A stretch of DNA of 64,000 nt from Nitrospirota bacterium (GTDB taxonomy: Bacteria; Nitrospirota; Thermodesulfovibrionia; UBA6902): assembly GCA_016214845.1 (NCBI GenBank), contig JACRMS010000003.1, positions 24,110 to 88,109 of the forward strand. The letters are read 5' to 3'. Both the position numbers and the translations under genes were made by a program. The notes beneath the pieces are model-generated. The model did no database searches and was not told where the DNA came from. It saw only the letters and a list, made by a program, of their open reading frames with translations. Below are positions 27,425-27,505 of the stretch, in pieces (within the stretch, counting starts at the first letter, position 1; every line of letters starts with the position of its first letter).

Positions 27425-27505
27425 ACGGTCACTTTAACCCTGTACTGCAGGTTATTAAGGCCCGGACGATTAACACGCACTGTTAATTGTTCGGGCTTTT
27501 ATTTT
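27425..27505 (+). promoter_or_regulatory. conserved two-hairpin leader/terminator RNA motif, copy 1
   Basis: ACGGTCACTTTAACCCTGTActgcAGGTTATTAAGGCCCGG, then a 15-bp stem CCCGGACGATTAACA/TGTTAATTGTTCGGG, then CTTTTATTTT. It ends ~22 nt before ATG 27528. Confidence 0.55.

Follow-up and report, generated by a model that had tools for sequence, protein, structure and literature searches.

A putative transcription-attenuation RNA family in an arsenic island of Nitrospirota

The element and its four copies

The 64-kb stretch of Nitrospirota contig JACRMS010000003.1 studied here (the window; coordinates count from its first letter) carries an arsenic island in which a core hairpin of ~40 nt, followed each time by a strong intrinsic terminator, occurs four times on the plus strand, with cores that start at positions 27426, 29358, 40863 and 44935. 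An earlier note on this DNA had placed a two-hairpin leader at these four sites, and its positions proved to be right to within 1 nt. Core and terminator together probably form a lineage-specific family of cis-acting transcription-attenuation RNAs, which occur both as 5′ leaders and as intercistronic elements. The features of the locus are provided in Table 1.

Both halves of the core are restricted to these sites. The 5′ half (CGGTYACTTTRRCCCTGT) gave four matches at 0 mismatches and none elsewhere in the window even when 3 mismatches were allowed (chance expectation 0.15; at least four matches in 0 of 100 shuffles), and the 3′ half (ACAGGTYATTWARGCCCGG) matched the same four sites (chance expectation 0.07), copy 1 showing a single mismatch to it (GCAGG and not ACAGG). 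In addition, a covariance model run with filters off on both strands of the whole window returned the four copies only, with 57-65 bits, the next best hit scoring 11.8 bits. Each of the four has the G+C-rich stem-loop and the subsequent U-tract that define an intrinsic terminator. This second hairpin was borne out as originally described, with a sequence that differs among the four copies, a pairing that is kept and a T-run behind it; the ending attributed to it, GGGC plus a U-run, had to be corrected for copy 2 only, where it is GGGG plus a U-run. The downstream start codons were also corrected, to the ATG codons at 27528, 29581, 40984 and 45026.

Copies 1-3 lie between consecutive same-strand transcription units, while copy 4 is located in a 5′ leader behind a sigma-54 promoter. 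The promoter-like site formerly reported ~50 nt 5′ of copy 4 is a perfect match to TGGCAY-N5-TTGCW, and the L001 orthologue of this copy (loci of other assemblies are given here by L numbers) has GGCATAAATGTTGCA as its sigma-54 site at the same distance of ~48 nt. The window scan found no such site before copies 1-3.

Table 1. Coordinates of the element, its parts and the surrounding genes in the window.
Feature	Position	Strand	Remarks
Copy 1 core, putative antiterminator hairpin	27426-27464	+	56.8 bits
Copy 1 outer helix	27426-28 / 27462-64	+	CGG / CCG
Copy 1 P0	27432-37 / 27455-60	+	CTTTAA / TTAAGG
Copy 1 P1	27439-42 / 27448-51	+	CCTG / CAGG
Copy 1 bulges	27429-31, 27452-54	+	TCA, TTA
Copy 1 intrinsic terminator	27457-27505	+	19-bp stem 27457-27499, -26 kcal/mol, then T-run
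Copy 2 core	29358-29400	+	64.6 bits; 22 nt 3′ of stop codon of C_GCAxxG_C_C gene
Copy 2 intrinsic terminator	29394-29448	+	stem 29394-29439, -27 kcal/mol, then T-run
Copy 3 core	40863-40908	+	60.1 bits; 8 nt 3′ of stop codon of Liv-type ABC ATPase
Copy 3 intrinsic terminator	40901-40950	+	stem 40901-40947, -27 kcal/mol, then T-run
Sigma-54 promoter-like site TGGCATAAATATTGCT	44871-44886	+	48 nt upstream of copy 4
Copy 4 core	44935-44974	+	60.5 bits; in 5′ leader of cytochrome c/AioB/AioA-like operon
Copy 4 intrinsic terminator	44967-45023	+	stem 44967-45014, -17 kcal/mol, then T-run
Orphan small ETIK protein gene	27146-27346	+	66 aa; candidate trans-acting partner
AioXSR-like sensory module	19243-23279	-	phosphonate-type periplasmic binding protein, histidine kinase, sigma-54-dependent response regulator
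Polar-amino-acid-type ABC permeases			upstream of ArsS genes
ArsS radical-SAM genes	25051, 26169, 31343		third is a carboxymuconolactone-decarboxylase (CMD) fusion; 373-394 bits vs cut-off 300
Operon after copy 1	27528-29335	+	radical-SAM paralogue 1, DUF3795 protein, C_GCAxxG_C_C protein
Operon after copy 2	29581-40854	+	secreted 276-aa protein, SDR, ArsS-CMD fusion, 264-aa protein of no assigned function; further HgcA-like corrinoid protein, ferredoxin, Liv-type ABC transporter
Operon after copy 3	40984-43148	+	radical-SAM paralogue 2, YncE-like beta-propeller
ArsR gene	43254		
Operon after copy 4	45026-50561	+	cytochrome c, AioB, AioA-like Mo-enzyme, Rieske/cytochrome b subunits

The core hairpin and its family

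An alignment of 34 copies was best fitted by three helices, in the order 5′-CGG-UYA-CUUUAA-C-CCUG-(variable apex)-CAGG-UYA-UUAAAG-C-CCG-3′. They consist of an outer helix (CGG/CCG), P0 (CUUUAA/UUAAAG) and P1 (CCUG/CAGG plus an extension that varies). A 3x1 loop, in which UYA faces C, lies between outer helix and P0, and a 1x3 loop, in which C faces UYA, between P0 and P1; the apex of P1 ranges from 1 to 52 nt among copies. The first hairpin of the earlier note is consequently real but longer than it was described, as it comprises the outer helix, P0 and P1. Compensatory changes were found at 5 of the 6 pairs of P1, such as UCCCGC/GCGGGA in L029 and L045 and CCUU/AAGG in the minus-strand copy of L004. 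In P0, 5 of the 6 pairs vary, on one side only, with 12 G·U cells of the alignment against 6 unpaired ones (2 of them C·A or A·C); copy 3 of the window, with CTTTGA/TTAAGG, contains two G·U wobbles. Pairing was found in 93% of the cells, as opposed to 20-52% when the 3′ partner was slid by 1-3 columns, and none of 500 shuffles reached the observed covariation score. RNAalifold independently gave the same three helices, and the model fold is the minimum-free-energy structure of 26 of the 34 isolated cores. The covariation on which the original proposal had been made to depend is provided by the compensation in P1 and by the strand-specific G·U variation in P0.

Two other pairing schemes were rejected. 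The first, a 5′ mini-hairpin GGUYA/URACC taken from single-sequence minimum-free-energy folds, has a Y/R pair that is compensated in 1 copy and broken in 6 of the 34. The second, a shifted register with an outer GGUY/RGCC helix and an extended P1 (AACC/GGUU), is the minimum-free-energy fold in 8 of the 34 cores and presents 4 mismatches at the informative position vs 0 for the P0 model.

Conservation is not evenly distributed along the core. The U and the A of the 5′ UYA bulge and both single Cs are invariant or nearly so, while the 3′ bulge varies freely (UUA, UCA, UAA, UUU, CAC, CAA), and the base of P1 is conserved in sequence though free of any constraint from the terminator. The two strands of the core are near-repeats (GG-UYA-N6-C-CC twice), which makes the duplex approximately two-fold. 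It must be noted that the ~40 nt of the core are nearly invariant while the neighbouring proteins are only 50-90% identical.

The 34 copies all belong to Nitrospirota/Thermodesulfovibrionia assemblies and all lie beside the same arsenic-island genes. Among 185,579 species genomes scanned with an exact pattern, true hits numbered 6, each of them in a metagenome-assembled genome of Nitrospirota/Thermodesulfovibrionia. Metagenomes scanned with a pattern anchored differently contributed another 9, in which CGGTTAC and the terminator were both kept without having been required. The covariance model recovered copies that the patterns had missed (L021:947 and, on the minus strand, L004:498-575) and further ones in contigs fetched via homologues of the ETIK protein. 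Altogether, exact patterns account for 19 of the 34 copies and the model for 15, the latter supplying most of the informative variation. Pattern hits outside Nitrospirota (Marinobacter, Corynebacterium and others), as well as L027, were discarded since they fell in coding sequence, in some cases of the genome scan FKBP-like, or had no terminator; where scored, they reached 28 bits at most. The ~300 kb examined contained no copy beyond the arsenic island, and neither the remaining 46 kb of the window nor the flanks of the fetched loci yielded one. With Rfam 15, the whole window yielded 0 hits at the gathering threshold, and between 27300 and 45100 only chance-level hits below 23 bits were obtained at E≤10, none of them common to the four copies. 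This agrees with the initial failure to match the element to a riboswitch class, and extends it to the REP (repetitive extragenic palindromic) and terminator families of Rfam at both thresholds.

A bias in orientation and position had also been anticipated, and all 33 copies whose contig continues have a same-strand gene just downstream, within ~3-330 nt. In other genomes, the sensor module is usually followed by the ABC genes, ArsS and the ETIK gene, then by the motif and, behind it, by cytochrome c, AioB and the AioA-like gene. Other genes were also found behind the copy, namely a BioB-like radical-SAM gene in L028, a YeeE-type transporter gene preceded by a short open reading frame (ORF) without family match in L004, a class-I methyltransferase gene, possibly ArsM-like, in L030, a trypsin-like protease gene plus ArsS in L026, ArsR in L024, and in L031, L045, L021, L028, L037 and L044 a gene for a 387-393-aa protein with weak similarity to outer-membrane DcaP. 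In L004 two divergent copies enclose a promoter region of 126 nt and point to one operon each; an RND/MMPL-like identity read by eye for the ORF behind the minus-strand copy was not confirmed by Pfam.

It was also considered whether the repeat could act at the level of DNA, either as an operator (e.g., of ArsR, with GGTTA-N3-TAACC as palindrome) or as an intergenic repeat similar to REP or MITE (miniature inverted-repeat transposable element). In most copies GGTTACTTTAACC forms a perfect palindrome at the DNA level, the island has an ArsR gene, which adjoins the motif in L022, L024, L026 and L030, and a genuine REP-like two-hairpin repeat exists elsewhere in the window. However, the GGUYA/URACC pairing fails in the 6 copies mentioned above and the spacing of the half-sites ranges from ~9 to 60 bp. 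The replacement of A by G opposite U in 12 cells of P0, with C·A or A·C in only 2, is tolerated only in an RNA of this strand, which argues against a DNA palindrome. Moreover, orientation is constant relative to the downstream gene, at which the motif is always aimed, and there is no REP match in Rfam. The core alone is conserved and the terminator stems diverge, the reverse of the pattern expected from a mobile repeat, and the copies are confined to one island. A DNA-level feature is accordingly regarded as highly improbable.

Terminator overlap, proposed switch and effector

Wherever the downstream sequence is present (L008 ends at the contig end), the 5′ arm of the terminator starts at the conserved AAAGCCCG, which is the 3′ strand of the hairpin and sits within the 3′ strand that P0 and the outer helix form; in copy 1 the 5′ base of the terminator, AAGGCCCG, is common to core and terminator. 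The upper terminator stem has been rewritten among copies with full compensation, and in the other copies examined the stems measure 13-23 bp, with -13 to -39 kcal/mol and a T-run after each. In turn, the 5′ strand of the hairpin (CGG-UYA-CUUUAA) resembles the 3′ strand of the terminator, CGGGCUUUUU (CGGG-CUUUUU), so that both compete for one partner. This three-way pairing constraint, by which the A-tract has to pair with a U-tract and the mimic strand has to resemble the latter, accounts for the conserved sequence at helical positions. Since the 3′ strand of the hairpin overlaps the base of the terminator, a conditional terminator is mechanistically plausible; as in generic antiterminator/terminator attenuators, the two structures have a strand in common and are mutually exclusive, and the upstream one has evolutionary support.

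Compared with the core-enforced fold, the terminator fold of the four copies in the window gains 4.6-14 kcal/mol in stability, and therefore the likely default is termination. When the core is enforced, the bottom 8-9 bp of the terminator are lost and the residual hairpin is at least 8 unpaired nt from the U-tract. It is established for intrinsic termination that a hairpin that far from the U-tract would not terminate.

According to the mechanism that we propose, the core hairpin would be transcribed first and would form, and the emerging 3′ arm of the terminator would displace the weak outer helix and the P0 pairs, so that the terminator stem would extend to the U-tract and RNA polymerase would stop, which would be the default state. 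Binding of a factor in trans would stabilise the hairpin and block the bottom ~8 bp of the terminator; the leftover upper hairpin would be too distant from the U-tract, and read-through into the downstream operon would follow, which would make the element an ON switch. Each of four successive transcription units in the arsenic island would thus have a valve of this kind, initiation in the island would probably be under AioXSR-like, sigma-54 control upstream of the valves, and the four operons would be expected to respond jointly. In the aio-like operon, the ATG of the cytochrome c gene lies 3 nt past the T-run of copy 4, without a Shine-Dalgarno sequence, and the orthologues in L012 and L022 start at 1-2 nt. 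This leaves no promoter-sized gap between terminator and start codon, and the operon should therefore be expressible by read-through only. As a separate observation, whether the terminator hairpin is formed may also affect translation initiation of the cytochrome c gene.

A different reading is that the element is unconditional, that is, a terminator or insulator with fixed partial read-through, a stabiliser of the 3′ end of the upstream mRNA, or a short stable RNA such as a small RNA (sRNA) derived from a 3′ untranslated region or driven by sigma-54, which would act in trans. The terminator fold is much the more stable, ~24 of the 34 copies follow an ETIK gene (directly, at up to ~260 nt, or past an intervening ArsR gene), with which the motif was duplicated together in L021, L034 and L044, and copies 2 and 3 stand directly after the stop codon of another gene as a 3′ element would. 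Against this, a plain terminator needs no invariant 40-nt hairpin whose 5′ strand copies the terminator 3′ strand, the aio-like operon requires read-through for lack of promoter room, and every copy is close to and co-oriented with a downstream gene. Furthermore, copy 4 and its L001 orthologue have no same-strand gene upstream and, like the divergent pair of L004, nothing to terminate; together with the cytochrome c start 1-3 nt past the U-tract, these copies exclude a pure 3′-end element.

With respect to an sRNA, copy 4 and its sigma-54 promoter would yield a transcript of ~125 nt that resembles the Qrr-type sRNAs, which likewise come as multiple paralogues with a conserved core of ~40 nt and terminators of their own, copy 4 being placed behind sigma-54 near an NtrC-type system. 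Unlike Qrr genes, three of the four copies in the window have no sigma-54 promoter, and all copies abut a co-oriented gene that would be left promoterless. Nor do copies 2 and 3 behave as free-standing sRNA genes, as they start 22 and 8 nt past stop codons. We consequently hold an unconditional role to be quite improbable. Occlusion of the hairpin by a ribosome at the upstream stop codon was also rejected as a universal trigger, because the distance from stop codon to core varies from 0 to ~260 nt and 3-4 copies have no upstream ORF.

The shared cis-regulatory leader or conditional terminator put forward in the earlier note is thus supported by anatomy, orientation bias and comparative structure. 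Several points must nevertheless be counted against it. Regulated read-through is what we infer purely from the anatomy of the element, and a terminating ribosome could influence the copies situated 0-14 nt past a stop codon (~13 loci). The outer helix has just 3 bp, the first of which is replaced by an A·G mismatch in 3 of the 34 copies; P0 shows no double compensatory change, and its conservation could stem solely from the need to pair with the U-tract. The 19 copies retrieved by exact patterns inflate the apparent invariance at the patterned positions, and the origin of all copies in one bacterial class implies few independent evolutionary events. As to a protein partner, an RNA binder is postulated in ETIK without a family, a confident fold or a structural match, and two ETIK genes have no motif behind them.

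Regarding the effector, we lean slightly to a protein that would clamp the hairpin, a small-molecule ligand being nearly as likely. What inclines us to a protein is the two-loop hairpin overlapping the terminator, which resembles the design of the RAT (ribonucleic antiterminator) hairpins, together with the near-repeat strands and the conserved base of P1. RAT hairpins are bound by the CAT (co-antiterminator) domains of the BglG/SacY/LicT family of antiterminators. As in that system, the hairpin is short (~30-40 nt) and imperfect, with two internal loops that are asymmetric, the terminator 5′ arm overlaps with its 3′ strand, several copies per genome precede related operons, and, by inference in the present case, termination is the default and stabilisation of the hairpin leads to read-through. 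Near-repeat strands would suit a dimeric binder, as CAT dimers are. The resemblance is one of mechanism only: the sequences are unrelated, the regulon belongs to arsenic metabolism of Nitrospirota and not to the sugar phosphotransferase system, and the candidate partner is an orphan protein of 60-80 aa with no detectable sensor domain or fold. Pfam detected no CAT_RBD/PRD or ANTAR protein among essentially all window ORFs of at least 100 aa. The leaders targeted by ANTAR proteins (EutV, NasR, AmiR) also present a two-hairpin appearance before a terminator, with protein antitermination that sequesters the terminator 5′ arm; unlike the two hexaloop hairpins that ANTAR sites need, the core is one extended hairpin with an apical loop of 1-52 nt.

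The sole protein candidate visible for the effector, which it could be, is ETIK, and its role as trans-acting partner of the core hairpin is speculative. Its C-terminal half is invariant (…FGYL..KD.E…TSG.IAWINI..IE.IK). Only 37 homologues were found among 5.8 billion proteins, all in Nitrospirota-type assemblies, and a profile search of 1.84 billion representatives gave 17 clusters only; its lineage distribution matches that of the motif. In other genomes the ETIK homologue is for most copies the nearest or next-nearest same-strand gene upstream, often immediately adjacent. ETIK has no Pfam family, no significant match in the PDB by sequence or fold and no obvious sensor domain, and its AlphaFold model (pLDDT 63.6) shows a helix plus a beta-hairpin. 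In the metagenomic contig L030 (9611-9913) the ETIK stop codon is lost and a called ORF of 100 aa spans motif and terminator, either a decaying copy or an annotation artefact.

Alternatively, the effector could be a small molecule and the element a riboswitch of the ON type, in which the UYA/C and C/UYA loops and their flanking pairs would form the aptamer and the ligand would lock the outer helix and thereby block the terminator. Candidate ligands would have a connection to arsenic or to cofactors of the island, such as 5′-deoxy-5′-dimethylarsinoyl-adenosine (an ArsS product), methylarsenite or a cofactor of the regulated enzymes. Its architecture is like that of the pbuE adenine riboswitch, in which the 3′ strand of the closing helix is the 5′ arm of a thermodynamically favoured terminator; with the terminator so favoured, the decision must be kinetic and effector-stabilised, as in the pbuE type. 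The (nearly) invariant U and A of the 5′ bulge and the two single Cs would also fit an aptamer, as would several copies before functionally linked operons that include transport genes, and none of the known families of RNA-binding regulators is represented in the window. However, the core is a simple hairpin of ~40 nt with only ~8 conserved unpaired nt, without the multi-helix junction or pseudoknot of the pbuE type and without match to an Rfam riboswitch, its 3′ bulge is free to vary, and most of its conserved sequence is already explained by the three-way pairing with terminator and U-tract. In addition, the island already contains two protein sensors of arsenic type, the AioXSR-like module and ArsR. 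On balance a riboswitch of this type seems less likely than not, though nearly as likely as a protein-clamped hairpin, and its more specific form, a new class whose aptamer recognises a cytoplasmic arsenic species (the organoarsenical nucleoside made by ArsS, or methylarsenite), is rather improbable.

The arsenic island and its significance

Gene labels derive from Pfam and NCBIfam scans. The ArsS paralogues (arsenosugar-type radical SAM, DUF3641) span 25051-27125 and 31343-33154 and all exceed the NCBIfam cut-off; the one at 31343 is fused to a carboxymuconolactone-decarboxylase/AhpD-like domain, and related loci have as many as four ArsS genes, which alternate with genes for Liv-type binding proteins. 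Radical-SAM paralogues 1 (27528) and 2 (40984), which are 42% identical to each other, had been called BioB-like, and a distant resemblance indeed exists (E 1e-12 to 1e-15), but it remains far short of the cut-off of the family; among solved structures, HydE is the nearest (E 7e-4). The porin label of 29581-30411 is tentative, as the protein carries a signal peptide and is beta-rich in sequence but matches no family. The HgcA-like corrinoid protein scores 159 bits with NF040863, below the cut-off of 275, and is followed by a 2x[4Fe-4S] ferredoxin; this HgcAB-like pair (33892-35237) downstream of copy 2 may be a corrinoid-dependent methyltransferase acting on a substrate other than mercury.

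The AioA-like molybdoenzyme (46067-48418) contains a Rieske_3 3Fe-4S domain and scores 309 bits against the 359 of the arsenite-oxidase large-subunit cut-off, while its AioB partner is above the NCBIfam cut-off, which makes the substrate of this divergent clade uncertain. The AioXSR-like module presumably drives the sigma-54 promoter or promoters of the island. Two more perfect sigma-54-like sites were found at 14196-14211 (+), upstream of a multihaem cytochrome gene (14270), and at 19153-19168 (-), upstream of an amino-acid-type binding-protein gene (18216-19106, -) beside the AioXSR-like genes. The region 10830-18066, which directly precedes the island, encodes a cluster of large c-type cytochromes of the multihaem kind, with Paired_CXXCH and MtrC/MtrF-like domains, and this suggests a capacity for extracellular electron transfer.

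Other structured repeats were observed. An unrelated two-hairpin repeat of ~70 nt is present at 27355-27422 (+), just upstream of copy 1, and at 38418-38486 (-), between two Liv permease genes. Its first hairpin (ATGCTGAAC-TTG-TTTCAGCAT) is identical at both sites, its second one shows compensatory differences (ACCCTGAA..TTCAGGGT vs ATCCCGAA..TTCGGGAT), and the repeat is absent from 45 other loci. Additionally, L037 (7300-7440) and L021 (1170-1260) have a conserved, G+C-rich and apparently structured stretch (…CCCC..GATGCA.GGG…GCCGCATGCA.AG.GGGG…) between the terminator of the motif and the 387-393-aa gene with weak DcaP similarity; it is absent from the window and may be another leader element.

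Regulation of aio is understood as purely protein-based, through AioX, AioS, AioR, sigma-54 and ArsR, and our searches of the open literature retrieved no RNA element linked to the regulation of aio or ArsS, nor anything relevant that would connect riboswitches with arsenite oxidase, ArsS or Thermodesulfovibrionia. The element is a new family of a known kind, the antiterminator/terminator, previously undescribed, strongly selected and confined to the Nitrospirota arsenic island. Being common to four operons, it marks their genes as one functional unit. With 90 nt of RNA, it is also a compact and directly testable system. If the proposed attenuation is true, it would represent a second, RNA-level checkpoint on the aio-like respiratory operon and on three operons with uncharacterised radical-SAM, corrinoid (HgcA-like) and transport genes. 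Should the effector be ETIK, it would found a new family of RNA-binding antiterminators; should it be a metabolite, a new riboswitch class, and with a riboswitch for an arsenic species, a metalloid or organometalloid compound would for the first time have an RNA sensor, one that opens four operons for arsenite oxidation and organoarsenical metabolism. Nitrospirota are common in groundwater and paddy soils, and the element provides a handle on their unexplored anaerobic arsenic pathway.

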